From IMG/VR virus record IMGVR_UViG_3300027985_001053: a stretch of DNA of 64,000 nt; one strand, given 5' to 3'. The notes under the pieces are model-generated. The model was given only the letters and a program-made list of their open reading frames with translations, was not told where the DNA came from and made no database searches. Shown piece by piece: positions 7,392-54,098 of the stretch. The stretch comes from a virus (lineage: Duplodnaviria > Heunggongvirae > Uroviricota > Caudoviricetes). Both the position numbers and the translations under genes were made by a program. Each line of letters opens with the position of its first letter. The first letter of the stretch is position 1.

Positions 7392-7849
7392 TTGGTGAAT
7401 AAAAGTTTAATGTTTAGTAGTAAAGAAGAAAAATGGCAAACGCCAGATAATGTATTTAATGAATTAAATGAAGAGTTTAATTTTACATTGGATCCTTGTT
7501 GCCAGCATGATAGTGCAAAATGTGATAAATATTATACGCCTGTAGAAGATGGCTTAAGTCAATCATGGGCAAATGAAACGGTCTTTGTAAATCCTCCTTA
7601 TGGTAGAGAATTAAAAAGTGGGTTAAAAAATCACATAATGAAGCTATTTACAATAAAGCCACAGTGGTTATGCTAATACCAGCAAGGACAGATACAAGCT
7701 ATTTTCATGATTATATTTATAATAAGTTTGAAGTTCGATTTATTAGAGGTAGAATTAAGTTTGTAGATCCAGCTACAAAAAAGCAAGGGGATTCTGCTCT
7801 ATTCCCTACAATGATCGTAGTCATGAAGCATAACAGTAAAAGGGATTAA
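7392..7849 (+). pseudogene. dam: DNA N6-adenine methyltransferase (T1/P1-type phage Dam family), disrupted by a frameshift near 7640
   Basis: frame 1 gives WQTPDNVFNELNEEFNFTLDPCC...NPPYGRELK; the overlapping frame continues EAIYNKATVVMLIPARTDTSYFHDYIY...RFIRGRIKF...ALFPTMIVV. Base 7640 must be read twice to join them. Confidence 0.7.
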
Positions 7850-7891: not shown

Positions 7892-8311
7892 ATGGAAAAT
7901 ATAGAAACAGCAATAGACTTAGCTCTTGTGCCATCAACGCTAACAATATCACTTGAAGGCGAGAAACTTATTGAAATCCTACATGATGGCACCGTTAAAA
8001 CGTACAAAGAAGGTTGTGAACAAGAAGCAAGTAAGATATTTTATGAATCTTTACAATTTGAAGGCCAAACATTATATCAAAAAATAAGCTCCTTAAATAA
8101 GAAGATAGAAGAACTCGAGAAGCTAAAAGCAGAGTCTATAGTAAGGTTTAAGAATGACTGTGTTTCAATCTTTGTACATAAATATGGTTTGGACATAGAC
8201 GATATGAAAAAGCATATGAATTGTCTTACAGATGAAGAATATTTCGATTATATGGTTGGGGAAACTTCGACGGAAGATTATGTTGATGAAGATATTTTAA
8301 GCTGGGATTGA
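7892..8311 (+). CDS. hypothetical acidic protein
   Basis: 139 aa ORF. Confidence 0.4.
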   Translation: MENIETAIDLALVPSTLTISLEGEKLIEILHDGTVKTYKEGCEQEASKIFYESLQFEGQTLYQKISSLNKKIEELEKLKAESIVRFKNDCVSIFVHKYGLDIDDMKKHMNCLTDEEYFDYMVGETSTEDYVDEDILSWD

Positions 8312-11038: not shown

Positions 11039-11479
11039 TTATTTAACCTTCCTATAAAATATTGTTATCCCGTTTAAATGATCGAACTCATGTTGGAATA
11101 CTTTAGCATCTAAACCTCTTAAACGATACAAGACATTCTCACCTTTACAGTTAGTAAAGCTTACTTGAATAGTAACAGGCCTCATAATGTTAACAAATCC
11201 ATAGGTAGCCGAAGGGTATGTTAAACATCCTTCTTTCATAGCTTTCTTTTGTTTGCTTGTAAAAACTATTGAAGGGTTATATACACTTATGACTTCACCT
11301 TGATATTTCATAATGAAAAACTTTTGGTTTATTCCTACCTGTGGGGCAGCTAACCCAATACCATCTTTCATAACTTCAATCATCTTAGGTATAATCTCTT
11401 TTTCAATTGTAGTTATCTCGCTATTAAGAACACTTCTGCATTCACAACCTTCTACGAATTCTTTATCAACTAATTTCAT
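11039..11479 (-). CDS. def: peptide deformylase
   Basis: motifs GIGLAAPQVG, EGCLTYPS and QHEFDHLNG; start placed at the internal ATG (MKLVDKE) because aaggagat lies 6 nt upstream. Confidence 0.85.
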   Translation of the reverse strand: MKLVDKEFVEGCECRSVLNSEITTIEKEIIPKMIEVMKDGIGLAAPQVGINQKFFIMKYQGEVISVYNPSIVFTSKQKKAMKEGCLTYPSATYGFVNIMRPVTIQVSFTNCKGENVLYRLRGLDAKVFQHEFDHLNGITIFYRKVK

Positions 11480-11790
11480 CGTAATCTCCTTGCTTAGATA
11501 CATTACCTTGAAATAGGCCATAAAGTCAACTAAGTTAAATTAAAAGCGTATTGTACTTTTAAAAATATTATGCTATCCTATCTAAATAAAGGAAATGATA
11601 CAATATGAAACATAAAGAGTCTGAAGGTCACAAACGTCAGGTAATAGGAAATAAAGTTTGGGTTTGTGATTACAGGTTTAAGAGACCTAGTATTTTCCCC
11701 TAGGACAAGATAGATATTGAAAAACTACAAAAAGAGCATAGTGAACAGAGAATATTAAATGACATTAGGTCTAAAAATTAAGGAGACAAT

Positions 11791-12018
11791 ATGTATAAGA
11801 CAGAAATTGATTTAGTAAACAGTGTTATGAGTGGTTCTGGAGTCTGGAGCCATAAGCAAACAGCCTGGTACAAACTAAAAGCTTTTATAGAAGAACATGC
11901 CAAAGATAACTTGGTAAAATTACCTACCCCTGAGCAATTATACGAAAAGGTTAGAACCAGAGTAACTTATGAAGATGTTGAGGTTATTCTTAAATTGCTT
12001 AAAACAGGTGATTTTTAG
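11791..12018 (+). CDS. hypothetical protein
   Basis: 75 aa; RBS aaggagac. Confidence 0.4.
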   Translation: MYKTEIDLVNSVMSGSGVWSHKQTAWYKLKAFIEEHAKDNLVKLPTPEQLYEKVRTRVTYEDVEVILKLLKTGDF

Positions 12019-12054
12019 ATACATGCTTAACTTTTAATTTCAAGCATGTATCTA
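12017..12054. terminator. bidirectional terminator hairpin between convergent genes
   Basis: perfect 13-bp inverted repeat tagatacatgctt / aagcatgtatcta. Confidence 0.55.
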
Positions 12055-12064
12055 AACGTAGATA

Positions 12065-13051
12065 TTAACAACGACTAGAAGAACTACTCCCTCCACAAGA
12101 ATTACGAGAGGGTATCCTATGTATTTCGCAACCAGAATATCCAGAGACATTACTAGATAAATTAGTATTGGATCTCTGCTCTATCATAGGTGAGCTGTAC
12201 TTCTTAAGAATAGCGTTTAACGTCTTCTCAGAAGGAGAGGATTTTATTGGACTCATAGGTCTCTTTCCAGTCCAATCAAGATAGCATATTCCATCCGGTT
12301 GAAACACAACTTCAAAGACCTCATCCGAAGGAATAATATCAGTAGGTTCTAGTAAAGAGCTCTTCCAGTATACCTTAGTACCAAGAATCCTCTGAAGAGT
12401 AGTTCGACATACCGGACAAGACCCCTCCCACAATACCCTATAATCATTGAAAGTTAGTTCTACTGGAGTTTTGTCAAGAGTACCATTCTCTTTACGAAAC
12501 CTTACTGCTTCAAAACCCATATTCCTAGCCCATGCGATATAAGCCTCTATAAACTCTCTAGAAGTCAAGTCAGTTATTACACAATTAACACTAATATCAA
12601 TACCTCGTTTTCCATACTCATCTATGATTACAGATAGCTTACTATCCGGTAAATCATAAGTACCTTTAAAAATGCTCTTGTTCTTTGATTCATCATAATG
12701 ATGTCTACTAATGTTAATATGGTCTACTGCTACAGAGACTTGATCTATCTTCTCAAGCAATCCTGTTCCATTTGTTGTTAATAGAATATTAGTATACTTA
12801 TCTCTAAAATCCGGTAGTATCTCAAATACCAAATCGAAGTAAGGTGAAAGCAAAGGCTCTCCTCCAGTTATAGATATTTGATAAAACTTCTTATCTAAAT
12901 TAGTTAAAGTTTCTATTAGATTAGAGATATAAGCCGTTTTTCTAAGTGTAGGAAACTCTACATCCTTAGTATTAAAACAAAAGTCACAGGAAGCATTACA
13001 GCCTCCTGGCATCACTATTGAAAAGTTTGGGTCATTATTCGTTGTCTTCAT
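12065..13051 (-). CDS. radical SAM enzyme (MoaA/viperin-like N-terminal CxxxCxxC class), function unknown
   Basis: GGCNASCDFCFNT cluster at residues 18-25, ITGGEPLL SAM motif, TTNG. aggagg RBS. Unusual Cys/Ser-rich C-terminal tail (GCEIHRIPSRNSCGGSSSSSRC). Confidence 0.75.
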   Translation of the reverse strand: MKTTNNDPNFSIVMPGGCNASCDFCFNTKDVEFPTLRKTAYISNLIETLTNLDKKFYQISITGGEPLLSPYFDLVFEILPDFRDKYTNILLTTNGTGLLEKIDQVSVAVDHINISRHHYDESKNKSIFKGTYDLPDSKLSVIIDEYGKRGIDISVNCVITDLTSREFIEAYIAWARNMGFEAVRFRKENGTLDKTPVELTFNDYRVLWEGSCPVCRTTLQRILGTKVYWKSSLLEPTDIIPSDEVFEVVFQPDGICYLDWTGKRPMSPIKSSPSEKTLNAILKKYSSPMIEQRSNTNLSSNVSGYSGCEIHRIPSRNSCGGSSSSSRC

Positions 13052-13074
13052 TTATTTAGGGCCTCCTAGCCTTA

Positions 13075-14202
13075 CTATGCTTTAAAATTATATAAAGGTC
13101 GTACTCTATAAAGTATCTCTACAGAATCTTCCATATACCTTTCTACTGAGAGATAATCTTTGTATGCAGCAGGAGCCTCATCAAGAGTAGACTCTGAAAT
13201 ACAACTAGAATACACACTTTCCATAGACTGTTTAAAAGTTTCTAAATCTAATAACTCTTTGGCCCTCGTCCGAGACATTGTTCTACCTGCACCATAAGGA
13301 GCTGAAAAGTTCCAGTCAGGATTACCTTTACCCCTTCCGATAATAAGACCATCTCTCATATTCCAAGGAATTACTACAAGCTCTCCCAAATTTGCTGATA
13401 TCGCACCCTTACGGATAATCCCAAAGTCAAAATCTATATAATTATGAATAGACTCTACGGTATCTAGAATATCACAATGTAAAAAACTAACAATCTTATC
13501 CATGATTATTCTCCGGTTTAACGATGCATACTCTTGAGCTACTTTCATATGACCTATATACCTATTAGCAGAATTACCTGTTAAGTATTCCATCCCTTTA
13601 GGAATTTCTTCCATAGAAAGCTTTTGTTCTAATTTAAAAGACTCTCTATCCTTTAAAGGTATATTGGTTAAATCTATCCTAGTAGTAGAACATAAGTTCT
13701 CAGCTTCTTTCTGATGATACGTCGCTACCTGTAAACCAAAATTACGAGAACCTGAATGTATCGTTAACCAAAGATTACTCTCCTCATCTTCACCTATCTC
13801 TATAAAGTGATTCCCTCCTCCTAAGGTACCTAGCGATAATAACACCCTCTCACTAGAAAGACTTATATCTGAACAGACTGATAACAACCTCTCTTTGAAA
13901 TCGTCAGGTATCTCAGGGCTACGAGTATTGACTTTAAACCCAGAAGGGATAAACTCTCTAACAAAAGTATCCAAAGACTCAAACCCTATCGCCTTCCTAT
14001 CAAGCTTACAGGATAACATCCCACAACCTATATCTACTCCTATTACAGACCCAGAACCTGCATGTATGTCTGGCATAAATCTCGTCTTACAACCTTCAAA
14101 AGCAGGGTGATTTAAAAATAGCTGTACCTGGTCTAAAGCACTAGAGGCAACATCCTCTGTAAATATCTTACAATCTGTATAAGCTCCTCTTAATTCTATC
14201 AT
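13075..14202 (-). CDS. rtcB: RtcB-family RNA ligase (3'-phosphate/5'-OH)
   Basis: MPDIHAGSGSVIGVDIGCGM, TLGGGNHFIEIG, HSGSRNFG, HNYID, APYGAGRTMSRTRAKEL and AYKD all align with E. coli RtcB. Confidence 0.85.
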   Translation of the reverse strand: MIELRGAYTDCKIFTEDVASSALDQVQLFLNHPAFEGCKTRFMPDIHAGSGSVIGVDIGCGMLSCKLDRKAIGFESLDTFVREFIPSGFKVNTRSPEIPDDFKERLLSVCSDISLSSERVLLSLGTLGGGNHFIEIGEDEESNLWLTIHSGSRNFGLQVATYHQKEAENLCSTTRIDLTNIPLKDRESFKLEQKLSMEEIPKGMEYLTGNSANRYIGHMKVAQEYASLNRRIIMDKIVSFLHCDILDTVESIHNYIDFDFGIIRKGAISANLGELVVIPWNMRDGLIIGRGKGNPDWNFSAPYGAGRTMSRTRAKELLDLETFKQSMESVYSSCISESTLDEAPAAYKDYLSVERYMEDSVEILYRVRPLYNFKA

Positions 14203-15888: not shown

Positions 15889-15932
15889 AAATCATTTCTA
15901 ATAGCTCGATTATAAGCTATTAGAAATGATTT
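15889..15932. promoter_or_regulatory. perfect 18-bp inverted repeat in the AT-rich region
   Basis: aaatcatttctaatagct-cgattata-agctattagaaatgattt. Confidence 0.6.
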
Positions 15933-16219: not shown

Positions 16220-16411
16220 ATGGACGTGTTAGCAAAAGATGTTTGTTTTATAGAAAATGGGTTTGGCGATGGTATGCTCTATAATAAAGATGGATCTGCA
16301 TGTTGGCAACTGCCGGCGTGTATAAAAAAAGAGGATATCATTCAAGGTTTCCCTCACTACATCATTAAGAGAGAAGCCTTGGACAAAAACGAGATTAGAA
16401 AATGGTTCTAA
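16220..16411 (+). CDS. hypothetical protein
   Basis: 63 aa ORF. Confidence 0.35.
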   Translation: MDVLAKDVCFIENGFGDGMLYNKDGSACWQLPACIKKEDIIQGFPHYIIKREALDKNEIRKWF

Positions 16412-16432
16412 TCTAGAAAAAAGGAGAATAAT

Positions 16433-16618
16433 ATGAAAGACATTAAAATTGAAGAAGTTACAGAATTTGATAGTTATTTGTCAAGCTCCGCAAGTTTTGA
16501 AATGAATTTGCTTTTAGCAAATTCATCTTTTTTAAAAGGCGTTAAAAGTCATGAAGCAGAGAAACTAAATGTTTCTCTTATCGACCTACATTTCGGGCGT
16601 GACGTCCGGAATGCATAA
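16433..16618 (+). CDS. hypothetical protein
   Basis: 61 aa; RBS aaggagaa. Confidence 0.35.
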   Translation: MKDIKIEEVTEFDSYLSSSASFEMNLLLANSSFLKGVKSHEAEKLNVSLIDLHFGRDVRNA

Positions 16619-16630
16619 AAACTTTTTATC

Positions 16631-16666
16631 AAGTATATTGACACAAATTAATATACTCGATAATAT
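16631..16666 (+). promoter_or_regulatory. promoter family B copy 1: TTGACA, 17-bp spacer, TAATAT, with palindrome caagtatat/atatactcg
   Basis: sigma70-like spacing; same cassette at 18450 and 19216. Confidence 0.6.
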
Positions 16667-16671
16667 ATACA

Positions 16672-16716
16672 AGCTTGCAATGGTTTTTATAGTAGTTCGA
16701 ATCTACTAGCAAGCTA
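16672..16716 (+). ncRNA. tRNA-like minihelix leader, copy 1 (acceptor stem agcttgc/gcaagct, T-arm tagtag-TTCGAAT-ctacta, discriminator A)
   Basis: starts 6-7 nt after the -10 box, so it would be the 5' end of the transcript. Confidence 0.5.
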
Positions 16717-16742
16717 TAAATAAAAATTTTAAGGAGAATAAG

Positions 16743-17234
16743 ATGGAATTTACTTTAGAAGAAATCAATGAAATTATGGATAGAAATAATGGGGATCTAA
16801 TCCTCAAGGATACACTTATCAAAACATTACCAGAAGGGTTAAAGGTTCAAGGAAACTTGGATCTGACAGATACCGACATTCAAGAGTTACCAAACGGGTT
16901 AATAGTTGGAAAAAACTTAAACTTGTACTTTACAAAGGTAACGTCGTTACCTGAAAATTTAAAAGTTGGTGGATGGGTAGAGCTACAAGGGACTAAGATA
17001 GAGACGTTACCAAAAGGTTTAGAAGTAGGCTTATCCCTAGATGCAAGCTATACACCAATGACAACACTACCAAGAGATTTAAAAATTGGTGGTTACCTTA
17101 GTCTGAGAGGGACTAAGGTAATAACATTACCAAAAGGGTTAACCGTAGGAACCGTTTTAGATATAACGAATACAAAAGTTAAGTCTTTACCTAAAGACTT
17201 AAAAGTAGGAGGTAAAATCTACAGCGATCTATAA
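16743..17234 (+). CDS. LRR-family protein, short form (7 repeats, no C-terminal domain)
   Basis: MEFTLEEINEIM leader, then 20-residue repeats LxLxxTxIxxLPxxLxVGGx. Confidence 0.6.
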   Translation: MEFTLEEINEIMDRNNGDLILKDTLIKTLPEGLKVQGNLDLTDTDIQELPNGLIVGKNLNLYFTKVTSLPENLKVGGWVELQGTKIETLPKGLEVGLSLDASYTPMTTLPRDLKIGGYLSLRGTKVITLPKGLTVGTVLDITNTKVKSLPKDLKVGGKIYSDL

Positions 17235-17237
17235 GAT
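17232..17237 (+). promoter_or_regulatory. TAAGAT -10-like box preceding minihelix copy 2
   Basis: same spacing to the minihelix as in copy 1; weak -35. Confidence 0.3.
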
Positions 17238-17244
17238 TAATACA

Positions 17245-17290
17245 AGCTTGTAATGGTTTTATATAGTGGTTCAATTCCACTAGCAAGCTA
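17245..17290 (+). ncRNA. tRNA-like minihelix leader, copy 2 (agcttgt/gcaagct with a U-G pair; T-arm tagtgg-TTCAATT-ccacta)
   Basis: compensatory change in the T-stem relative to copy 1. Confidence 0.5.
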
Positions 17291-17314
17291 TAAACCAAAA
17301 TTTAGGAGTTTAAT

Positions 17315-17857
17315 ATGGAATTCGAATTTGTAATGGGATCTACAATCCATAATACAATTATTATTGCAGAAATAAATATCAGAAATCATTTTTCAATATC
17401 TTTTAATGAGGTTCTTCCGTTTGAAATGACAGAAGAAAGAGATCTAGAACAAAAAGAAAGCTTTCTTGAAAATTTTGAAGAAGAAGAAAGACAAGAAATA
17501 GAGGAACAGATCTATTATCTTGGTTATGAAGGATATTTTGATATATCTTTATATTCAAATAATTTTAATTTTCCAGAACTGGAAAATGATATCTATTTTG
17601 AATCTATAGGGTGTGGTCAGGGGGATCATAGAAAAGATCTTATATACTCTATTAACTCTATTGATAAAAATACAGATACAAAAGATATCAATACAAAGAT
17701 CTTTGACCTCTGGGATAGATTACATTTAAAGGAAATGGAGAGTTTATCAGAATCTGATAAACAAGAAATTAATAACTTAATTGAAAAAATCAAAACGTTT
17801 GATCTAGATGATCAAATGGAAATATTAGCAAGAAAATTGCTAATAGAGGATAAATAA
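17315..17857 (+). CDS. hypothetical acidic protein
   Basis: 180 aa ORF downstream of minihelix 2. Confidence 0.45.
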   Translation: MEFEFVMGSTIHNTIIIAEINIRNHFSISFNEVLPFEMTEERDLEQKESFLENFEEEERQEIEEQIYYLGYEGYFDISLYSNNFNFPELENDIYFESIGCGQGDHRKDLIYSINSIDKNTDTKDINTKIFDLWDRLHLKEMESLSESDKQEINNLIEKIKTFDLDDQMEILARKLLIEDK

Positions 17858-17858
17858 C

Positions 17859-18437
17859 ATGAAACCATATGATAGTATAAAAACGATGTATAAGTCAAAA
17901 AGTCTTATACATCGTAAAAAAGTTTGTTTAAACAATGATGTTGTTATTGTAACAACAGACGAGCAAGCTAATAAGTTAAGTCCATTGACTTTATATTCTT
18001 GGATAGGACGCCTAAACGTTAATCTAAGAATGTACAATAGCAGTAGTCAATTCGGTGATATGGTTTTTTCAAACAAAGAAGACGCTGTTATTGAAAAAAT
18101 CAGAGAATTGAAGTTTATACAAAAAAATGTTAATGACTGTATTAATGACTTAAAAGAAGAAATTTCTACTATACGACGTATTAGATCTATAGCTAAAAAG
18201 CTATATACTTTCTCTATGGAAAATTCATATTTAAGCAAACGAGATCTAGATCTTATTATATCTAGATATGAATTAAACTTAACCTTAAATGAGTTTAAAA
18301 ACTTAAGCTTAATTATGGGAATTCAATTTAAGAGTAATAATCTTGTTTCTATATGGTTAGGAAAAAAATCAAAACTTAAGATTGAAACAATTATTAAAAT
18401 AATAGAAAAATTGAGATATCAAATAAAAATAAATTAA
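17859..18437 (+). CDS. hypothetical protein
   Basis: 192 aa ORF. Confidence 0.45.
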   Translation: MKPYDSIKTMYKSKSLIHRKKVCLNNDVVIVTTDEQANKLSPLTLYSWIGRLNVNLRMYNSSSQFGDMVFSNKEDAVIEKIRELKFIQKNVNDCINDLKEEISTIRRIRSIAKKLYTFSMENSYLSKRDLDLIISRYELNLTLNEFKNLSLIMGIQFKSNNLVSIWLGKKSKLKIETIIKIIEKLRYQIKIN

Positions 18438-18449
18438 ATTATCTTTATC

Positions 18450-18485
18450 AAGTATATTGACAAAAATTAATATACTTGATAATAT
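18450..18485 (+). promoter_or_regulatory. promoter family B copy 2 (TTGACA 18457..18462, TAATAT 18480..18485)
   Basis: palindrome caagtatat/atatacttg flanks the -35 box and spacer. Confidence 0.6.
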
Positions 18486-18516
18486 GTAGAAAGATAAAAA
18501 CTTGAGGAGTTTGAAG

Positions 18517-19203
18517 ATGAATAATTTTGACATGAACAGTAAAGGAATAAATATCATAGCTAATATTTTTTATGATGAATGTCTTTCGCAAGACAACTTT
18601 GACCGAAATTGTAAACTTATAGATAAAAACAAAGATTTTTTTATATACACTGATTATGGTAACTTAAGCAGTGATTTCTATATATCTTTGAAAGAAGAGT
18701 CCAGAACAGATCTCGAAGATGTTATAGAACAAGAACAAATTTATTGCGGATGCTCTATAGATGAGCTTGATATTCAAGAGCTTCAAGCTCTTATAGAAAA
18801 TGAGTTATCATATATAGATTTATTTTTTATCTGTAAAAAATATCATCTTGAGATTGAACAAAATTATGAGTTATTAACGATTCGAGGATTCTCTCAAGGT
18901 GACATCTTAAAAATATTTGTAAATATTGAAGAGTTTGAAAAGGTGACAGGAGCTGTTTTTAACGATATCAAAGAATCTTTAAAAGAAGATTTAATTAATT
19001 ATTGTTATAAAACACCATTAACTGCACGAATAACAATAAACGACCAAGAGATCTATTTGGACGGAATTGACGGCAATTATATTTATTATGATGCAGATAC
19101 TAAAAAACAAATTATAGAAATTTGTTTAAAAAGTGTATCAGATATTGATCAAGATCTTTTAAAAGAAGAACTTGAGGAATTATTACCAGAAGAAATAAAT
19201 TAA
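18517..19203 (+). CDS. hypothetical acidic protein
   Basis: ATG at 18517 preceded by gaggag; ORF-track start 18502 is a TTG inside the RBS. Confidence 0.45.
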   Translation: MNNFDMNSKGINIIANIFYDECLSQDNFDRNCKLIDKNKDFFIYTDYGNLSSDFYISLKEESRTDLEDVIEQEQIYCGCSIDELDIQELQALIENELSYIDLFFICKKYHLEIEQNYELLTIRGFSQGDILKIFVNIEEFEKVTGAVFNDIKESLKEDLINYCYKTPLTARITINDQEIYLDGIDGNYIYYDADTKKQIIEICLKSVSDIDQDLLKEELEELLPEEIN

Positions 19204-19215
19204 ACTAATTTTATC

Positions 19216-19251
19216 AAGTATATTGACAAAAATTAATATACTTGATAATAT
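19216..19251 (+). promoter_or_regulatory. promoter family B copy 3 (TTGACA 19223..19228, TAATAT 19246..19251)
   Basis: identical cassette. Confidence 0.6.
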
Positions 19252-19282
19252 TTAGAAAGATAAAAACTTGAGGAGTTTAAAA

Positions 19283-19579
19283 ATGATAAAAATGATAGTC
19301 CAAGACACGTATACAAAGAGAGATATAAACGGAAACGTTTATCACGCAATTACAATTATCAACCTTGAAAATAGAGAATCCTTTACTACTAGTTCTCCCA
19401 ACTTAAGTAATGTTACCAGTATTTTGCAGAAAGCTGGTTTCGATTATAGTCAGATTTACACAATTGAAACTTGTACAGGATCGGCAAGGCATAGCTCTTT
19501 ACCAAAAAGTATATACCTTGATCCTTGCAGGTATACGGAAGAATGGAAAAAACAATTAATAGGAATTAATTGTTTATAG
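19283..19579 (+). CDS. hypothetical protein
   Basis: ATG at 19283 with gaggag RBS. Confidence 0.45.
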   Translation: MIKMIVQDTYTKRDINGNVYHAITIINLENRESFTTSSPNLSNVTSILQKAGFDYSQIYTIETCTGSARHSSLPKSIYLDPCRYTEEWKKQLIGINCL

Positions 19580-19582
19580 GAT

Positions 19583-19612
19583 GTTAAGAGGTATTCATAA
19601 ACCTCTTAATAT
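19583..19612 (+). terminator. hairpin aagaggt-attcataa-acctctt followed by aatattt
   Basis: inverted repeat after the stop of the 19283 gene. Confidence 0.4.
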
Positions 19613-19644
19613 TTAAAATTAAGATGACGACAAAAGAGGATAAT

Positions 19645-20484
19645 ATGGAATATACTTTAGAAGAACTGAATAAAATGATGGATGGAAACTATGGAAACTT
19701 AGATTTAAACTTCAATGATACTAAAGAAATATCATTACCGATATCGTTACCTAAAGGGTTAACTGCTCGAGGATGGTTAGATTTAGCTCATACGGAAATT
19801 GAATCATTACCTGAAGGGTTAACGGTTAGGGGTACCTTATATTTAAGATATACCCCAATTATAGAATTACCAGAAGGGTTAACTGTAGGAAGAACCTTAG
19901 ATTTAGAAGGTACTCCAATTAAATCTTTACCAAAAGGGTTAACCGTAGGAGGAGACTTAAATTTAAAATATACTAAAATTAAATCACTACCAAGAGATTT
20001 AAAAGTTGGTGGAAAAATCTACAGTGATTTACCTAAAAATGAACTAAATTACACAAAACTTCAACAAGGTGAGTATGTTGAAAATTCATACCTATATGCC
20101 GATGAAATATTCACTCTTGTTAAATCTAAAAAGTCTTTTGATAAATACACATATTTTATTGGAGAGTTTAAAGGTCAAAACGTACTTTATGATGGTACTT
20201 ATTACGCACATTGTGAAAACATCAAGAAAGGACTTAGGGATCTTAACTTCAAACATTCTCAAGATAGAAGAATTGAACAATACAAAAATTTAAAATTAAC
20301 AAGTAATCTATCTTTTGATGAATCAAAAACGATGTACAGAATTTTAACTGGAGCATGTAGGCAAGGTACTGAAAGTTTCATTAGTAACTTAAAAACAATA
20401 AAAGATCAGTATACAATACAGGAATTAATAGATCTAACTGTTAATCAATATGGGCATGAAGTTTTTAAGAAGTTTTTTAAATAA
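19645..20484 (+). CDS. LRR-family protein (5-6 repeats plus conserved C-terminal domain)
   Basis: MEYTLEELNKMM leader; RBS agaggataat identical to other family members; ORF-track start 19624 includes the RBS. Confidence 0.6.
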   Translation: MEYTLEELNKMMDGNYGNLDLNFNDTKEISLPISLPKGLTARGWLDLAHTEIESLPEGLTVRGTLYLRYTPIIELPEGLTVGRTLDLEGTPIKSLPKGLTVGGDLNLKYTKIKSLPRDLKVGGKIYSDLPKNELNYTKLQQGEYVENSYLYADEIFTLVKSKKSFDKYTYFIGEFKGQNVLYDGTYYAHCENIKKGLRDLNFKHSQDRRIEQYKNLKLTSNLSFDESKTMYRILTGACRQGTESFISNLKTIKDQYTIQELIDLTVNQYGHEVFKKFFK

Positions 20485-20498
20485 AAAGTTGTACTTTT

Positions 20499-20539
20499 CA
20501 CTTGTTTATGTTGACTAAAATATAAATAAGTGATAAGAT
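20499..20539 (+). promoter_or_regulatory. promoter family A copy 1 (TTGACT 20511..20516, 17 bp, TAAGAT 20534..20539) inside palindrome cacttgtttat/ataaataagtg
   Basis: five copies in total. Confidence 0.6.
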
Positions 20540-20546
20540 TATTATA

Positions 20547-20592
20547 AGCTTATAATGGTTTTATATAGTAGTTCGATGCTACTAACAAGGTA
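20547..20592 (+). ncRNA. tRNA-like minihelix leader, copy 3 (T-arm intact, acceptor 3' strand degenerate)
   Basis: tagtag-TTCGATG-ctacta; 5' strand agcttat lies within palindrome tataagcttata. Confidence 0.35.
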
Positions 20593-20603
20593 AGGAGATT
20601 TTT

Positions 20604-20924
20604 ATGATTATGGCATTTAAAAGATATCTAGAAATAAATGATTTTACGCTTATAGATTGTATTGCTTTAGAAAATAGCACCTATCAAATTTCTTATTATG
20701 ATAATAAGAGCAAGGCAATAAAAACAAAACTTGTACCAAAATATAAAAAGTCTTATACGCTAAGATATGTTAATAGAAATGAAGTTTTTTATGTAGATTT
20801 TAGTCCTATGACTTCAAAGGAAGCTAAAATTATTAAAAATAATTCTCTGTTTTATCCTAACCGAACAATAGATATTGTTCCATATGGTTTTTATCTTGAG
20901 TGGAAAAATGGGCAATTGCTATAA
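20604..20924 (+). CDS. hypothetical protein
   Basis: 106 aa; RBS aaggagat. Confidence 0.45.
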   Translation: MIMAFKRYLEINDFTLIDCIALENSTYQISYYDNKSKAIKTKLVPKYKKSYTLRYVNRNEVFYVDFSPMTSKEAKIIKNNSLFYPNRTIDIVPYGFYLEWKNGQLL

Positions 20925-20938
20925 AATAGCATATAACA

Positions 20939-20984
20939 AGCTTGTAATGGTTTTATATAGTAGTTCGATTCTACTAGCAAGCTA
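20939..20984 (+). ncRNA. tRNA-like minihelix leader, copy 4 (agcttgt/gcaagct; tagtag-TTCGATT-ctacta)
   Basis: same architecture, followed by RBS agaggag and an ATG. Confidence 0.5.
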
Positions 20985-21008
20985 TAAATCAAAATAGAGG
21001 AGTTAAAT

Positions 21009-21239
21009 ATGTTTACAAAAAGAAATAGAATTTCCAGTATCGAGAAAAAGTTAAATATCCGAACGGAATTAAAACTTAAAGATTATAGTGATAGTTTAAA
21101 TTCTACTTTTAAAGTATTTAGACTAATCGATGAGTATCCTACAAATACGACAGGAATCTATAAATCAACTGGTCAGAAATATGAATATGATGGTATTTTT
21201 ACTAAGCAACAATTGATTGACGAATGCAACAAACTATAA
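21009..21239 (+). CDS. hypothetical protein
   Basis: 76 aa ORF. Confidence 0.4.
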   Translation: MFTKRNRISSIEKKLNIRTELKLKDYSDSLNSTFKVFRLIDEYPTNTTGIYKSTGQKYEYDGIFTKQQLIDECNKL

Positions 21240-27443: not shown

Positions 27444-29165
27444 ATGGAATATACTTTAGAAGAATTAAATAGAATGATGAAAGATAATGATGGAAACTTA
27501 GATTTAAGACATACTAAAATTACATCACTGCCTAAAGGATTAACAGTTGGAGGTAACTTATATTTAAGAAATACTCAAATTACCTCGTTACCAGGAGATT
27601 TAATTGTTGGAGGAGACTTAGATTTAAGTTATACTCCAATCACATCGTTACCAGGAGATTTAATTGTTGGAGGAGACTTAGATTTAAGTTATACTCCAAT
27701 CACATCGTTACCAGACGATTTAATTGTTGGAGGAGACTTAGATTTAAGTTATACTCCAATCACATCGTTACCAGACGATTTAATTGTTGGAGGTAGCTTA
27801 TATTTAAGCAATACTCAAATTAAATTATTACCAAAAGGATTGAAGGTTGGAGGTGGGGTAGATTTAAGATATGCTCCGATTAAATCATTACCAGAAGACT
27901 TATCTGTTGGAAGTAGCTTAGATTTAAGTCGTACTCAAATTAAATCATTACCAGAAGGGTTAAAGGTTGGAGGTTGGTTAGATTTAAGATATGCTCCAAT
28001 TAAATCGTTACCAGAAGAGTTAATGGTGAAAGGTAGTTTATATTTAGAAAATACTCAAGTTACCTCGTTACCAGAAGGGTTCATGGTTAGAGGTAGCTTA
28101 TATTTAAGTCATACTCAAATCACATCGTTACCAAAAGGGTTAACGGTTGGAGGAGACATAGATTTAAGATATGCTCCAATTACATCGTTACCAGAAGGGT
28201 TAACCGTTGGTGGTAATTTAGACTTAGAAGGTACTAAAATTACCTCGTTACCAGAAGGGTTAACTGTTGGAGGTTGGCTAGATTTAAGTCATACTCAAAT
28301 CACATCGTTACCAAAAGGGTTAACGGTTGGAGGAGACATAGATTTAAGCGTTACTCCGATTACAACACTACCAGAAAGGTTAACGGTTGGAAGAAATCTA
28401 GATTTTAGATATACTAAAATTACCTCGTTACCAGAAGGGTTAACTGTTGGAGGTTGGCTAGATTTAAGAAATACTCAAATTACATCATTGCCTAAAAGGT
28501 TAACTGTTGGAGGATATTTAGATTTAAGTTCTACTCAAATTACATCGTTACCTGAAGGATTAACCGTTGGAGGTAACTTATATTTAGAAGGTACTAAAAT
28601 CACATCGTTACCGAAAGGGTTAACGGTTGGAGGATATTTAGCTTTAAGTAATACTCCAATTAAATCGTTATCAATAGATTTAAAAGTTGGAGGTACCATA
28701 TTTAGCGATTTACCTAAAAATAAAGTCAAATATACAAAACTTCAACAAGGTGACTATAGTGAAGCTGACTATCTGTATGCAGATGGAATCTTAACTCATA
28801 TTAAAGCTAAAAAATATTTTGATAAATATACATATTTTATTGGAGAATTTAAAGATAAAAATGTACTTTATGATGGAACTTATTATGTTCACTGTAAAAA
28901 CATTAAGCAAGGAATTGAGGATCTTAACTTCAAACATGCTAAAGATAGAGGGTCTGATCACTACAAAAATCTAAAATTATCCAGTATTCTATCTTTTGAA
29001 GAATCTAAAACGATGTACAGGATTTTAACCGGTGCGTGTAGACAAGGTACTGAAAGTTTTATTGAAAATTTGAAAATAATAAAAGAACAGTATACCATCC
29101 AAGAATTAATAGATCTAACTGTTAATCAATACGGTTATGAAACTTTTAAGAAGTTTTTTAGTTAA
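27444..29165 (+). CDS. LRR-family protein, long form (20 consecutive 20-residue repeats plus C-terminal domain)
   Basis: repeat consensus LDLxxTxITSLPEGLTVGGx; C-terminal domain shared with the 19645 and 22097 genes. Confidence 0.65.
   Translation: MEYTLEELNRMMKDNDGNLDLRHTKITSLPKGLTVGGNLYLRNTQITSLPGDLIVGGDLDLSYTPITSLPGDLIVGGDLDLSYTPITSLPDDLIVGGDLDLSYTPITSLPDDLIVGGSLYLSNTQIKLLPKGLKVGGGVDLRYAPIKSLPEDLSVGSSLDLSRTQIKSLPEGLKVGGWLDLRYAPIKSLPEELMVKGSLYLENTQVTSLPEGFMVRGSLYLSHTQITSLPKGLTVGGDIDLRYAPITSLPEGLTVGGNLDLEGTKITSLPEGLTVGGWLDLSHTQITSLPKGLTVGGDIDLSVTPITTLPERLTVGRNLDFRYTKITSLPEGLTVGGWLDLRNTQITSLPKRLTVGGYLDLSSTQITSLPEGLTVGGNLYLEGTKITSLPKGLTVGGYLALSNTPIKSLSIDLKVGGTIFSDLPKNKVKYTKLQQGDYSEADYLYADGILTHIKAKKYFDKYTYFIGEFKDKNVLYDGTYYVHCKNIKQGIEDLNFKHAKDRGSDHYKNLKLSSILSFEESKTMYRILTGACRQGTESFIENLKIIKEQYTIQELIDLTVNQYGYETFKKFFS
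27591..27770 (+). repeat. three perfect or near-perfect tandem 60-bp DNA repeats inside the LRR gene
   Basis: ccaggagatttaattgttggaggagacttagatttaagttatactccaatcacatcgtta, three copies. Confidence 0.85.
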
Positions 29166-31750: not shown

Positions 31751-33496
31751 TTATATTTTGAACTTATTTATTGTCTCATTTAAAGAAGAACTTACAGTAT
31801 TTAAATCCAATAAAGTATCTTCAATAACCTTTACCGAAGTAGTAATTTCATTAGTTCCTATAGCTACCTCTGTCATAGCATTAGCCACCTCTTCAGACTG
31901 AACAGTAGCTTTATCAATATCTTTTACAGAAGCATTTAAATTATCATTTAATGTTTGAATATTCTCGAGTAAAGTATATGACATATCTCTTAAATCTTTT
32001 ATAGCATTAGCTATCTCAGAAGTACTTGCGGAGGTTTCTTGTAAACCATTATCTATCATGTTAAAAGCCTTGGAAGAGTTCTCCGAGGATGTTCGTATTT
32101 CATGGAAAATCTTAGATGACGATTTCTCTGAGGATTCAATAGCATGGATATCGTTCACAATCGTTTTTAAGGTAACTCCTATTGTTTTAGAATTATCTTT
32201 AGAGAAATCTGCCAGCTTCCGTATCTCTTCAGCAACTACAGCAAATCCTTTACCAACATTACCTGCATGAGCCGCTTCTATAGCAGCATTCATAGCTAAT
32301 ATATTAGTTCTTTGCGAAAGTTTAAATAACGTATCTACTATGGAAAATATTGTATCGGCTTTAGCTACTACAGAAGATACTAACCTAGAGTTTTCTTGTA
32401 TCTGTTTTTCTCCCAGGATGACAAGCTCTTTAAGTTTAAGCATCTCTTTAGATTCTTTAGAAACAACTCCTGAAATATCCATAGTAGATGAAAGCATTTC
32501 TCTAGTATTCGCTGAAATCTCATCAATTGCTGAGGAGTTATCTGTAATTAGGTCTACAAGGTTTTTTAAGTTATCGACTACCCCTAAGATACTACTTCTA
32601 GAAGAAATATTTAGATCTTTTAAAGAATGCATTAAAGATTCAACGCCTTTCGCATTTTGAGAGATTTCATAAACTGTTGCAGAAGTTTCAACAGTATTAG
32701 CAGCTAAAACATCTTGGGATGAGATTACATCGTCTACAGAGGAAACAACTTGCTTTACCAATAATTGTAAAGTCTCTATAAACTTATTAACGATACCTAT
32801 CAAGCTTCCTAACTCATCTTTTTTAGAATAAGCTATTCTATGAGCTAAATTAGCATCTACTGATAAAATATTATAGGCTTCGTTAGAAGCTTGGGATAAA
32901 GACTTGGTTGTTTTTGTAGTACTGTATATTATTGTAACCGCTATTACTATAAATGAAATGATTAGTAATACTATTATCGGAAATATAACTGAGTATATTT
33001 CTTTATTACTTTCATCTCTATAGGTTGAATAAACTACATAAGCATCTAAAGGAGCGTAATATCTAAATACAGCATCCTTTATGAAGTAATCGTCGGCACC
33101 TCCTGGTTTAGTATAATAATATGAAAAACTACCTTCTGTCTGCCCAAGCATTAAGCTTAAAATGGACACTTTTTCAACAAGATCTTTAAATACTACATAT
33201 TGTCCTTCTTTAGTTCTATCAATATAAGCTAAAACTTTATGATCTGATGTTAATACAAATGGATAAGAAGAAGAGTCTGTTTCAAAAATAATATCACTAA
33301 AATCTTGTAACGATAGTTTACCTGCATCTACCTTTTTTAAACTTGCAACTACACTGGATAATGTCGATTCACTTATTAGCTTATTATGTTTTGTTAGTGT
33401 AGATTTTACAGAATTATACACAGCTCCTCCTAAGAGAAGGAATCCTAAAAAAATTACAGATAATGTGCTAACTAATAATTTATTTCTAATAGTCAT
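31751..33496 (-). CDS. methyl-accepting chemotaxis protein-like transmembrane chemoreceptor
   Basis: N-terminal TM, about 140-aa periplasmic domain, second TM ([20 protein letters not shown]), then MCP signalling tip [36 protein letters not shown]. Confidence 0.75.
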
Positions 33497-52001: not shown

Positions 52002-54098
52002 CTAAACTTCCTCCAAGTGTTTATCTTTTAATAATTTTTTCAAAAGCTGTTCTTTACGAACAGTTCTATCTACATCTGGATCCAAAATTCTAAGCTCATC
52101 TTCGTTATAGACATACCTAGGAGTGCTTTTCATATCAGTATGACAAATATAAACTGCTGCTGCCGTAGAGTCTGAAACGTCATTTTGATACATCCCTGCA
52201 TCTGACAACAACCAACTAGTATTTTCTTTAGATTTCAAAGCATTGGTTTTCCCTTGCATATGGTCAACTTTCAACCCTTTTTTAGTAGGTACTGTAATTA
52301 ATGATTTTAGGTTATTCTTAAAATAAATCTGTTTCCCTGCTTTAAGTCTATGAGTTGATAGCAAGTTTAATAAAAATAAGTAAGGAGCCATTGTAGTCTC
52401 AACTGATTGCTTTTTTACCTGAAAACCTCTACGTTCTAACCATTGAATAGTTCCTTTAGATTCAAACTGGTCAAAAGAGATTCCGGCAATTCTAATATTA
52501 CCGAGAGTCTTTAAATCTACAATAAACTCTCTTATTGCATCCAGGTTTATTTTAGCACCATTTGATAGAATAGGAAACTGAATATCTATTATATAGATTT
52601 CTCTACCCTCTTTATCCAGCTCTTTATGACACATGGTAAATCCCAAAGCATCTGTTTTCTCTGATTGGTCTACGGATATATAACGTTCTTCTAAAGGATT
52701 TCTCCAGAACTGGTACATCCCATTACCTCTAACAAAATAAGTGTTTACTACTTGATTCCATATAAGGTTTTCTGGCTCAAACATAGAGTCGGCTAGAATA
52801 GATGTCATTATAGACTTTAAACCACCCTGGAAACATTCTTCGATACAAGATCTATTAGTAATAAACTTCGCATCGGCTCCTGCCGGAACCCCTGCATAGT
52901 TTTTCAAGTTCCTAATTAAGTCTTCGTCAAATAAAGGTTTTAACTCTAAAGGAGGGTGTATAAGATCAATCTCCTCGTATCGGGATACCTCTGAGTCATT
53001 TAATATTTTAGGTTCTCTAGAAGCATCTCCTTTAAAAATAGAAAACTTAGCTTCTGGATTCTGAATCTCCCATGTTTTATATTCCCAATAGGCTCCGGTA
53101 ACTACTTTATTACGAAAATATCCTTCAGAATCAGCCTTTGCAGATTCCCCTGTATGAATCATTCTATCTATAGAACATTCCATAGTATTTGGGGAAGAGT
53201 CCATAGATGTTCTTGCCAACCAGTTATTACCAAAACGTGAATAAATCCGTCCTTTTAAATCATTATAACTCCTTAAAATATAATCATCACTAAAACCACG
53301 ATCTAAGAAAAACGTTAACTCTGATATAGTACCTCCTAAAATAGAAAGACCTAATAACTTAGCTGGGTCTGAAATATTCTTAATACCTAAACCATCCTTA
53401 CCATCCCATGTTGGAAAAGATAAATCCATAGTTTTACCAGCAGTAGTCCAACAAACTTTAGAAGCTCCATAATCTTTTTGAGTATTCCTCATTTGCTCGA
53501 TAGTACGGCATTTTTCGTACATTGGGGAAGTTTCTAAGATATTTATCATCGGGTCTACTAAAAGCTCTCTAGCCTTATCCTGAGTGAATGAGAAGGCTAC
53601 AGCACATACTAATGATGCAGGGGAGAGACCTAATTCTTTTTTAGGATTCCTTTTAAGAAAATAGAGATAGTTTTGATACATTGCAGAAACTGTAGATACA
53701 AAAGACTTTCCTGCTCCAATAAATAATGATAATATCAAATGCCTATAGTCATTACCAAACTCCCAGTAATCCGCCATAATATCTAACCAGTACGAGAATA
53801 TATTCTCACCAGTATCCCCTAAATACTTTGGAGTCATAAACTCTGTTATCGTTGGAGGTTTCGATACATAGCTAAACTTCCAGGGATTTTTCATAATATT
53901 TAATAAGTCTTTTTGAGGAAGGTTTGGATTATTAACTAAAAACTCTAAGGACTGTTGTATAAGCTTAATATCATATTTCTCATCTAAGTCTTTATATAAA
54001 GCATCATCTCCCTGAAAAAAGTCAAGAAGCATGTTTGCTGGATCTGAAATAGCAGGTTTATGAATAATAGGTGGCTTTATATTATCAGTAATATTCAT
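52002..54098 (-). CDS. terL: terminase large subunit
   Basis: Walker A-like LSLFIGAGKSFVS; nuclease motif YISVDQSEKTDALGFTMCHKELDKEGREIYIIDIQ patterned like T4 gp17 [21 protein letters not shown]. Confidence 0.65.
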   Translation of the reverse strand: MNITDNIKPPIIHKPAISDPANMLLDFFQGDDALYKDLDEKYDIKLIQQSLEFLVNNPNLPQKDLLNIMKNPWKFSYVSKPPTITEFMTPKYLGDTGENIFSYWLDIMADYWEFGNDYRHLILSLFIGAGKSFVSTVSAMYQNYLYFLKRNPKKELGLSPASLVCAVAFSFTQDKARELLVDPMINILETSPMYEKCRTIEQMRNTQKDYGASKVCWTTAGKTMDLSFPTWDGKDGLGIKNISDPAKLLGLSILGGTISELTFFLDRGFSDDYILRSYNDLKGRIYSRFGNNWLARTSMDSSPNTMECSIDRMIHTGESAKADSEGYFRNKVVTGAYWEYKTWEIQNPEAKFSIFKGDASREPKILNDSEVSRYEEIDLIHPPLELKPLFDEDLIRNLKNYAGVPAGADAKFITNRSCIEECFQGGLKSIMTSILADSMFEPENLIWNQVVNTYFVRGNGMYQFWRNPLEERYISVDQSEKTDALGFTMCHKELDKEGREIYIIDIQFPILSNGAKINLDAIREFIVDLKTLGNIRIAGISFDQFESKGTIQWLERRGFQVKKQSVETTMAPYLFLLNLLSTHRLKAGKQIYFKNNLKSLITVPTKKGLKVDHMQGKTNALKSKENTSWLLSDAGMYQNDVSDSTAAAVYICHTDMKSTPRYVYNEDELRILDPDVDRTVRKEQLLKKLLKDKHLEEV

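Follow-up and report, generated by a model that had tools for sequence, protein, structure and literature searches.

A compact acceptor-stem and T-arm RNA element at gene boundaries of a phage genome and of unrelated phages

A 64,000-nucleotide stretch of the Caudoviricetes record IMGVR_UViG_3300027985_001053 (the whole stretch is called the window here) carries four copies of a short transfer RNA (tRNA)-like element that recurs in unrelated phages. The element is a sense-strand RNA of about 44-48 nucleotides (nt) that reproduces the acceptor/T-arm half of a tRNA and has no D-stem, anticodon arm or variable region; a linker, AAYGGUUUU, stands in for the D-arm, the anticodon arm and the variable region. 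It is intergenic, co-oriented with its neighbours and usually lies 0-15 nt past a stop codon. Tentatively, and at somewhat under an even chance, we read it as a mimic of the tRNA elbow that would be recognized by ribonuclease P (RNase P), possibly also by ribonuclease Z (RNase Z) or the CCA-adding enzyme, and would define mRNA ends. The element is apparently unannotated and undescribed.

The element was first noticed in a model's reading of the letters of the window, referred to here as the original prediction, which placed four copies on the + strand. All four are present, three of them intact (copies 1, 2 and 4) and one degenerate (copy 3), and are listed below with the parts of copy 1 given separately.

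16672-16715, + strand: copy 1, intact; fold -13.6 kcal/mol, z -3.02; covariance model 55.9 bits, E 6e-14
16672-16678, + strand: acceptor 5' strand of copy 1, AGCTTGC
16679-16689, + strand: linker of copy 1, AATGGTTTTTA
16690-16695, + strand: T-stem 5' strand of copy 1, TAGTAG
16696-16702, + strand: T-loop of copy 1, TTCGAAT
16703-16708, + strand: T-stem 3' strand of copy 1, CTACTA
16709-16715, + strand: acceptor 3' strand of copy 1, GCAAGCT
17245-17289, + strand: copy 2, intact; AGCTTGT / AATGGTTTTATA / TAGTGG-TTCAATT-CCACTA / GCAAGCT
20547-20591, + strand: copy 3, degenerate; AGCTTAT / AATGGTTTTATA / TAGTAG-TTCGATG-CTACTA / ACAAGGT
20939-20983, + strand: copy 4, intact; AGCTTGT / AATGGTTTTATA / TAGTAG-TTCGATT-CTACTA / GCAAGCT

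RNAfold gives copies 1, 2 and 4 the architecture that had been described (z -2.3 to -3.1): a stem of 7 base pairs (bp), 11-12 unpaired nt (AAUGGUUUU followed by UA or AUA) and a 6-bp stem with a 7-nt loop. The stems and the T-loop thus stand as proposed; the linker, AATGGTTTTTA or AATGGTTTTATA, is shorter than the 13-14 nt first stated because the claimed 'ata' overlaps the first two T-stem bases. An A at 16716 occupies the discriminator position of copy 1. Copy 2 (-14.1 kcal/mol, z -3.09; 54.6 bits) carries the compensatory T-stem change relative to copies 1 and 4 that had been pointed out (TAGTGG/CCACTA), and the U7·G pair is found, again as described, in copies 2 and 4; copy 4 folds at -12.1 kcal/mol (z -2.34; 55.2 bits). 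The T-loops originally given as TTCGAAT, TTCAATT and TTCGATT are those of copies 1, 2 and 4, respectively, and not of copy 3, in which the final base is altered (UUCGAUG). Copy 3 also has two acceptor mismatches, and its acceptor 3' strand runs straight into a ribosome-binding site (GGTAAGGAG); it takes an alternative fold no better than shuffled sequence (z -1.05) and scores 33.4 bits with two non-canonical pairs flagged. The covariance model used for these scores was built on the wider family and finds the window copies at E values of 6e-14 to 3e-7, the next-best match in the 64 kb reaching 13.5 bits. On the 3' side, the window copies are followed by AUAAA... and then by a ribosome-binding site.

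More than 120 distinct copies were collected with sequence-only scans and a covariance model. A scan of IMG/VR that used linker and T-arm letters only (AATGGTTTTN{4,5}GTRGTTCRAWTCYAC), for which we estimate about 0.1 matches by chance, hit six unrelated contigs whose flanks differ from those of the window yet pair with each other, for example AGCUAUG/CAUAGCU, UGGGCG/CGCCCA and UUCCGGA/UCCGGAA. With a looser sequence-only pattern more than 100 loci were retrieved, and both stems reach at least 5 bp in 50 of 104 distinct matches, compared with 1 of 2080 controls in which the 3' side was drawn at random from the same locus. Recent horizontal spread of one sequence is ruled out by how diverse the stems are. 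When the 5' strand of the window element (AGCTTGYAATGGTTTT) was used for a 16-mer scan of IMG/VR, 63 single matches came up, about the chance number, none of them with the 3' strand.

A covariance model, R1, built from 24 clean copies revealed many extra copies in the fetched loci that lie outside the search pattern, about 25 of them found by the model only. Their linkers (AACGGUUUU, AACGGUUCUA, AGUGGUUUU, UAUGGUAUU, AUUUGGAUUU, AAGGGUAUAA) include AACGG, AGUGG, UAUGG and AUUUGG, and UUCGACU or UUCAACU occurs among their loops. Scanning a single genome of each species added 104 further loci, about 55 of them above 35 bits. The lineages represented are Bacteroidota, Lachnospiraceae, other Clostridia, Treponema, Brachyspira, Corynebacterium, Saccharibacteria, Nomurabacteria and Nitrospinota. 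Two loci correspond to the isolated Mycobacterium phages Cuke and Indlulamithi (100% identity), and the Streptococcus prophage Javan535 holds one copy; in all three the copies are unannotated. Copy number reaches 10-11 in Cuke, 4-5 in Indlulamithi and 4 in the window. In Clostridia phages that share a downstream gene of about 195 amino acids (aa), the acceptor stems read AGGGCG, TGGGCG or AAGGUG. Four Carboxylicivirga scaffolds of 390-1149 bp (L208, L217, L237 and L239) have the element at one of their ends; about 70 nt downstream of it are identical in three of these scaffolds, the pattern that a multi-copy repeat would leave where it interrupts an assembly. Other RNAs found in element-bearing viral contigs are a pistol ribozyme (L184, 10135-10208, - strand, 56 bits) and a group I intron (L119, 10705-10966, + strand, 60 bits).

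The two stems covary throughout this collection. RNAalifold, applied to an unfitted MAFFT alignment of 24 diverse copies, recovers a 6-bp acceptor stem contiguous with a 6-bp T-stem and double compensatory changes in 11 of the 12 pairs. When 119 distinct copies are placed in a model-based alignment, which favours structure by construction, standard pairs fill 92.0% of the cells, a value reached by 0 of 500 shuffles, against 51.0% after shuffling, and pairing falls to 43-51% if the partners are slid by 1-3 columns. Double changes occur here in 12 of 13 pairs, the thirteenth being the invariant G53-C61; the unbiased control is the sequence-only comparison described above. The stems contain 61 G·U pairs against 4 A·C pairs, so that the helices can form in the sense strand only. 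This points to an element that acts as RNA and, less plausibly, as a single DNA strand. The covarying stems and the strand-specific G·U excess in unrelated phages bear out the proposal that the acceptor stem stacks on the T-arm in + strand RNA, and the covariance-model search suggested along with it has found the same recurring architecture outside the window.

The dimensions are those of a tRNA. Among 107 parsed copies the coaxial stack measures 11 bp (30 copies), 12 bp (38) or 13 bp (33), with a mode of 12 that compares with the 12 bp (7 plus 5) of tRNA; it is composed of 5-7 plus 5-7 bp, occasionally with a single bulged A, and of 7 plus 6 bp in the window copies. Between the acceptor 5' strand and the T-stem lie 10-16 nt. 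Across the 119 copies the T-loop has the canonical form U-U-C-R-A-N-U closed by G53-C61. The linker GG, U54, U55, C56, A58 and the G53-C61 closing pair are invariant in 119/119, position 57 of the T-loop is a purine in 119/119 and U60 is present in 118/119, an invariance that is partly imposed by the search patterns and also holds in the roughly 25 model-only copies. The invariant GG fits a mimic of the D-loop residues G18-G19 docking on the T-loop, so that the RNA would present a whole tRNA elbow and not a mere minihelix. At the discriminator position, the first to be unpaired on the 3' side, 54 of 107 copies have A, and at the position after it 52 of 107 have C, the commonest 3' tails being ACA and ACG; CCA is encoded in 5 of 122 copies.

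These features bear on two explanations that make no use of an RNA function. One is a folded single-strand or duplex site that works at the DNA level, either for a recombinase, integrase or other protein shuffling small cassettes, in the manner of integron attC or tRNA-gene att sites, or as an operator. T-arm sequences are common integrase targets, the Cuke arrays of small co-oriented genes split by structured, covarying repeats resemble cassette arrays, and the tiny Carboxylicivirga scaffolds end at the element as a multi-copy repeat would. We nevertheless consider such a site very improbable: the G·U excess excludes a duplex-DNA palindrome and demands the sense strand, the invariant letters are those of an RNA tertiary T-loop/D-loop motif, and the stem sequences vary freely, unlike protein-binding half-sites. 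Moreover, no recombinase gene recurs beside the element in the genes examined, and the window promoter described below is also used without it. The other explanation, that the copies are functionless tRNA genes or fragments left to decay after integration, we regard as barely credible. Remnants of this kind lack the 5' acceptor strand, whereas in the element the 5' and 3' acceptor strands are both present and covary; copy 3 is alone in the window in having a decayed look; and the same deletion design, with AAYGGUUUU in place of positions 8-48, extends from Actinobacteria to Bacteroidota, Clostridia, spirochaetes and candidate-phyla-radiation bacteria, which implies selection. Set against this are the presence of phage tRNA genes nearby in Cuke and Indlulamithi and the fact that fragments made of the T-arm and the 3' acceptor strand are a common by-product of tRNA-gene integration (PMC9897764). 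Even taken together, the DNA-level and remnant explanations have only a small probability.

The genomic context is that of a cistron-boundary signal read in the sense orientation. A same-strand open reading frame (ORF) starts at most 200 nt downstream in 77 of 87 copies. Of 122 non-redundant copies, 61 have a same-strand stop codon between -10 and +15 nt relative to the 5' edge, compared with 15 in the opposite-strand control, and 62 have a same-strand start 11-50 nt past the 3' edge, compared with 11; a stop 0-15 nt upstream, the location expected of a processing signal, is found in about 50% versus 12% of the control. Several IMG/VR copies come directly after a terminator-like hairpin and T-run. 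The most regular arrangement is seen in Cuke, where all 10-11 copies are on the coding strand and confined to a run of small genes that has the lysis cassette on one side and the integrase on the other. Each gap of 90-100 nt contains one copy, 7-9 nt past the stop codon, and then a small hairpin and a strong ribosome-binding site; true tRNA-Gln and tRNA-Lys genes follow downstream on the same strand. Two annotated Cuke genes (NC_048696; L189 7687-8251), gp043 starting at 7687 and gp044 at 7919, run through the elements at 7692-7735 and 7975-8018. Starts preceded by a ribosome-binding site are found about 50 nt past each element and about 100-150 nt past the annotated ones, and the annotated starts of both genes are probably mis-called.

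The downstream genes do not share a function. According to Pfam they encode unrelated or unknown proteins: a C5 methylase, a scaffold protein, a protein with a P22 antirepressor-like domain, the regulator-like protein of about 195 aa in Clostridia phages and many unknowns. The window itself has the following genes behind its four copies.

16743-17234, + strand: gene after copy 1, 163 aa with leucine-rich-repeat-like repeats; ATG 27 nt past the element
17315-17857, + strand: gene after copy 2, 180 aa; ATG 25 nt past the element
20604-20924, + strand: gene after copy 3, 106 aa; ATG 12 nt past the element
21009-21239, + strand: gene after copy 4, 76 aa; ATG 25 nt past the element

For the 180-aa protein no homologue was found except itself. 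In this context, it had been proposed that three copies follow -10 boxes and that the element would be the extreme 5' end of the mRNA. The window has two promoters that agree with this proposal.

16638-16666, + strand: sigma-70-type promoter of copy 1, TTGACA-17-TAATAT, 10/12 matches
20511-20539, + strand: sigma-70-type promoter of copy 3, TTGACT-17-TAAGAT, TG-extended -10

Gaps of 5 nt (copy 1) and 7 nt (copy 3) separate these strong promoters from the element. The start predicted for the first, at about 16671-16673, coincides with the first acceptor-stem base, and that for the second is at about 20546-20547, so copies 1 and 3 would, by promoter prediction only, be the 5' end of a primary transcript. 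The proposal does not extend to the other two copies. Copy 2 has a lone -10-like TAAGAT and no -35, copy 4 has neither box, and they begin 10 and 14 nt past the stop codons of ORFs 16743-17234 and 20604-20924, respectively; both are intercistronic. Nor does it hold for the family, as TANNNT (-10-like) hexamers show no positional enrichment upstream of the 122 copies, which rules out that the element always marks a transcription start.

The promoter of copy 1, TTGACA-17-TAATAT, is present three times in the window (16630-16666, 18449-18485 and 19215-19251). Because it recurs at 18485 and 19251 without an element downstream, the element is neither part of this promoter nor needed by it. Each of the three promoter copies lies inside an inverted repeat of 10 bp, TCAAGTATAT...ATATACTTGA, which extends over the -35 and -10 boxes and looks like an operator for a common early-gene regulator.

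The reading we lean towards, in which the element defines mRNA ends through enzymes that recognize the tRNA elbow, follows from its surface. Such a surface is known to be read only by the machineries that mature or bind tRNA (RNase P, RNase Z, the CCA-adding enzyme, TruB and TrmA, EF-Tu, and the sites at which the ribosome docks the elbow), and we propose cleavage by host RNase P because the element presents what the tRNA-maturation enzymes read. RNase P of the host would cut at the 5' edge, and RNase Z or another 3' nuclease, perhaps together with the CCA-adding enzyme, may act at the 3' edge after the discriminator. Polycistronic phage transcripts would in this way be punctuated into defined units, and the downstream message would start with, or just past, a compact and stable structure. 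Where a promoter lies directly upstream, as for window copies 1 and 3, the structure would be the native 5' end and no cleavage would be needed, and the four downstream early genes of the window would share a common protected 5' end. The three mechanisms named in the original prediction (RNase P, the CCA-adding enzyme and end protection) are plausible and would be the best candidates.

Several points weigh against this proposal. Cleavage at the borders of the element is inferred for every copy. A cut by RNase P 4-15 nt past the stop would strip the upstream mRNA of a protective 3' structure. At window copies 1 and 3 the 5' leader to be trimmed would be minimal or absent, and something besides cleavage must account for the function there. 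Many acceptor stems have only 5-6 bp, and the YrlA paper explains the non-cleavage of other Y RNAs by stems of less than 7 bp (PMC4201824). The rarity of an encoded CCA is neutral for RNase Z and means that one RNase P determinant is lost. Retrieval was seeded with AATGGTTTT and GTTCRAWTC, and the conservation of those letters is therefore partly ascertained. Finally, in Streptococcus phages the element sits in a larger conserved non-coding region with a long hairpin, which hints at other roles.

In these phages of S. salivarius and S. thermophilus, the element or a decayed version reduced to the T-arm is followed by the conserved long hairpin UUAGUCUGUCA...UGACAGACC.

L160 5880-6320, - strand: locus with the element or its T-arm-only version
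L296 1350-1660 (Streptococcus phage CHPC926), - strand: locus with the element or its T-arm-only version
L301 3355-3395 (Javan535), - strand: locus with the element or its T-arm-only version

In L160 and CHPC926 the unit occurs twice within a non-coding region of several hundred nt, and the CHPC926 units lie upstream of the late transcriptional activator and terS. The combination of element and hairpin, which matches no Rfam family, may be a larger structured RNA.

The same placement can be explained by an action in cis that involves no cleavage, in which the structure, as a very stable autonomous fold, would block 5'-end-dependent nucleases (RNase E, RNase J) or the loading of Rho, or would use its elbow surface to contact the ribosome (L1 stalk, L5, E or P site), hold back terminating ribosomes and favour re-initiation on the next gene. 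We consider this unlikely. In its favour, about half of the copies lie 0-15 nt past a stop and 11-50 nt before a start, the spacing of 7-9 nt in Cuke puts the helix at the edge of a terminating ribosome, copies 1 and 3 of the window would make native 5' ends, and the assortment of downstream genes (methylase, scaffold, antirepressor-like, unknowns) fits a generic expression element. However, a plain hairpin would suffice for end protection, and the invariant GG and T-loop point to a reader of the tRNA elbow. A distance to the start codon that ranges from 12 to more than 100 nt argues against a fixed geometry with the initiating ribosome, and the use of the window promoter at 18485 and 19251 without the element likewise counts against an action of this kind.

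A further alternative turns the element into the precursor of a trans-acting small RNA. Released by RNase P and RNase Z and given a CCA, such a mini-tRNA would serve, for example, as a decoy or sponge for tRNA-directed defence enzymes of the host or toxins that attack acceptor ends, for tRNA-modifying or tRNA-processing enzymes or for EF-Tu. Phages counter tRNA-targeting immunity with tRNA genes, the element holds a complete recognition surface for tRNA end-maturation, and the many copies in some phages (Cuke, Indlulamithi and the window) would provide a high dosage. There is also a precedent in Mycobacterium smegmatis, where the YrlA module is cleaved and given a CCA (PMC4201824). This alternative nonetheless appears improbable. 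Lacking an anticodon arm, the element cannot decoy anticodon nucleases, the best-known tRNA-directed defences. Its acceptor letters vary freely within one genome and contain no identity element (a 3:70 G·U occurs in only 7/119), no copy has a terminator of its own, and placement follows gene boundaries and not stand-alone small-RNA loci. Similarly small is the probability we give to a broader version, a class of armless mini-tRNAs in the phages of many phyla, excised by RNase P and RNase Z and CCA-tailed, that would act as effectors (elbow or acceptor decoys titrating tRNA-directed immune enzymes or the tRNA-maturation factors of the host) or as ribosome-docking modules for re-initiation.

The window comes from an AT-rich, phage-like genome of about 30% G+C. 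Its sequence lies within a 129,693-bp JGI contig and is also present in the Logan run SRR7216773. It encodes the large terminase subunit (52002-54098, - strand) and the portal protein, together with RtcB, peptide deformylase, a radical-SAM protein and a further protein that has a methyl-accepting chemotaxis protein (MCP) signalling domain. The large terminase subunit is at most 27% identical to those of known phages, and a megablast of 16-22 kb against INPHARED found no close relative. Searches for related loci based on RtcB in viral and metagenome collections came back empty, and the window-specific element pattern has no match in metagenomes. With no relative of the window phage found in these searches, conservation of the element in true homologues was assessable in other sets, such as the Clostridia phages with the shared downstream gene.

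A connection of the element to the RtcB RNA ligase encoded nearby, also part of the original prediction, found no support: no element lies within 10 kb in three contigs that encode the closest RtcB relatives of any size (56-59% identity), and RtcB is not annotated in the fetched genome stretches of element-bearing phages such as Cuke. In the window, the genes for peptide deformylase, the radical-SAM protein and RtcB adjoin at 11039-14202 (- strand). The element-free contigs of the closest sizeable RtcB relatives (L297-L300) are large and phage-like or mobile; in the 154-kb contig with RtcB relative P0006 (59% identity), genes for two anti-defence proteins, Tad8 and Acb3, precede that of RtcB (L297 251-2497).

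Other features of the window deserve mention. The gene at 31751-33496 (- strand) is an unusual auxiliary gene for a phage; its product of 581 aa combines a Cache sensor domain with the signalling domain of methyl-accepting chemotaxis proteins. Three genes (16743-17234, 19624-20484, 27444-29165) form a leucine-rich-repeat-type family with the repeat LPxGLxVGGxLxLxxTxI and similar N-termini (MEFTLEEINEIM / MEYTLEELNKMM), and two of them lie in the element-bearing early block. Upstream of this block, at 15889-15932 (+ strand), is a terminator-like hairpin with a perfect 18-bp stem and a T-run. A hairpin at 21094-21123 (+ strand) resembles the CRISPR-DR40 repeat model, scoring 31.2 bits where the threshold is 42 (E 0.057). 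Present only once, within ORF 21009-21239, it probably matches by chance.

Mimicry of tRNA is a recurrent viral strategy, represented in bacteriophages mainly by full tRNA genes, transfer-messenger RNA (tmRNA) and Y RNAs. The minimal design of about 45 nt described here, consisting of an acceptor stem, a GG linker and a T-arm, is found in phages of Actinobacteria, Firmicutes, Bacteroidota, spirochaetes and candidate-phyla-radiation bacteria and escapes tRNA finders and Rfam despite its strong covariation. It suggests that phages exploit the tRNA-handling enzymes of their hosts to cut or protect messages. If punctuation by RNase P or RNase Z is correct, phages would share the logic of mitochondrial 'tRNA punctuation' for mRNA maturation, and the element would represent a new class of natural non-tRNA substrates for the two enzymes. 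Gene-start annotations would be corrected, as for the two Cuke genes annotated through the element, and a compact part for processing or insulation in synthetic operons would become available. Tractable systems for such work are Cuke on M. smegmatis mc2 155 and the phages of Streptococcus salivarius or S. thermophilus.

The element does not belong to any of the following known classes. A canonical tRNA gene is rejected, there being no cloverleaf, no ARAGORN call and no Rfam tRNA match. ARAGORN calls no tRNA or tmRNA in the window and no element in 10 element-bearing loci, though it detects tRNA-Gln and tRNA-Lys of Cuke. In Rfam 15 no match covers the element, at gathering thresholds in the window and 12 loci or at a permissive threshold in window positions 16400-21200 and L160. 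For tmRNA, ARAGORN makes no call, the Rfam models match the T-arm only (7-12 bits), and a 3:70 G·U pair and an encoded CCA are as rare as given above. YrlA and other bacterial Y RNAs have no Rfam match at either threshold, and the element has no D-stem; the TROVE domain was not among the window ORFs scanned (five large ORFs of 498-924 aa without a Pfam match). The plant-virus 3' tRNA-like structure (RF00233) reaches 15.6 bits against a gathering threshold of 40 (E 1.5). An intrinsic terminator is excluded by a terminator scan that returned none of the four window copies and by the AUAAA... that follows them where a terminator would have its U-tract, and a tRNA fragment or attachment-site remnant by the covarying 5' acceptor strand and by several copies with different stems in one phage. 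Full-text literature searches gave no description of the element, an absence that is no proof of novelty. A 2023 IMG/VR catalogue of 10,006 candidate structured RNAs mentions tRNA-like ones, and an overlap with the element is possible.

The element can nevertheless be placed among known systems. Plant-mitochondrial t-elements are tRNA-like structures that flank mRNAs and are cut by RNase P and RNase Z. Like the phage element they are partial, non-decoding tRNA mimics, with an acceptor-like stem and a T-arm, at mRNA boundaries; they differ in being organellar, individually diverse and without a common linker, whereas the phage element, whose processing is a prediction, has the fixed AAYGGUUUU with its invariant GG. 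Setting mRNA ends by means of tRNA-maturation nucleases, as proposed for the phage element, is an idea common to both. In T7-like phages, host RNase III cuts the polycistronic early transcript into stable units at intercistronic hairpins. These sites are likewise recurring structured signals between cistrons, and differ in fold, enzyme and recognition logic. Minihelices built from an acceptor stem and a T-arm are the classical minimal substrates for bacterial RNase P, for tRNase Z and for CCA-adding enzymes, and form the biochemical basis of the mechanism proposed here; synthetic ones have the same stack of about 12 bp and the same T-loop and are laboratory constructs without the GG linker, whereas the element is natural and conserved. 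The 3' tRNA-like structures of plant RNA viruses (Tymo_tRNA-like, RF00233) also bring tRNA mimicry into a viral messenger RNA, but lie at the 3' terminus, are aminoacylated and include an anticodon-like arm and an acceptor with a pseudoknot. The tRNA-like domain of tmRNA joins an acceptor stem and a T-arm to a stemless D-loop substitute with GG after the 5' acceptor strand; it has, unlike the element, hundreds of nt (pseudoknots and the tag frame) between its halves, the alanine identity pair G3·U70 and a CCA end. The YrlA module mimics the acceptor stem, the T-arm and the D-loop contacts and is also found in phages, but YrlA has a true D-arm, a Ro60-binding helix and rsr (TROVE) as a neighbour, where the element is without D-stem and Ro-binding helix. 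In M. smegmatis, which is also the host of Cuke, the acceptor stem of this module has 7 bp, RNase P RNA cuts the module in vitro, and CCA is added to it in vivo; other Y RNAs are left uncut, which was attributed to acceptor stems of less than 7 bp (PMC4201824). By function, the closest systems would be the t-elements and, by analogy, the RNase III sites of T7; by structure, the element would stand nearest to the tRNA-like domain of tmRNA and the YrlA module.

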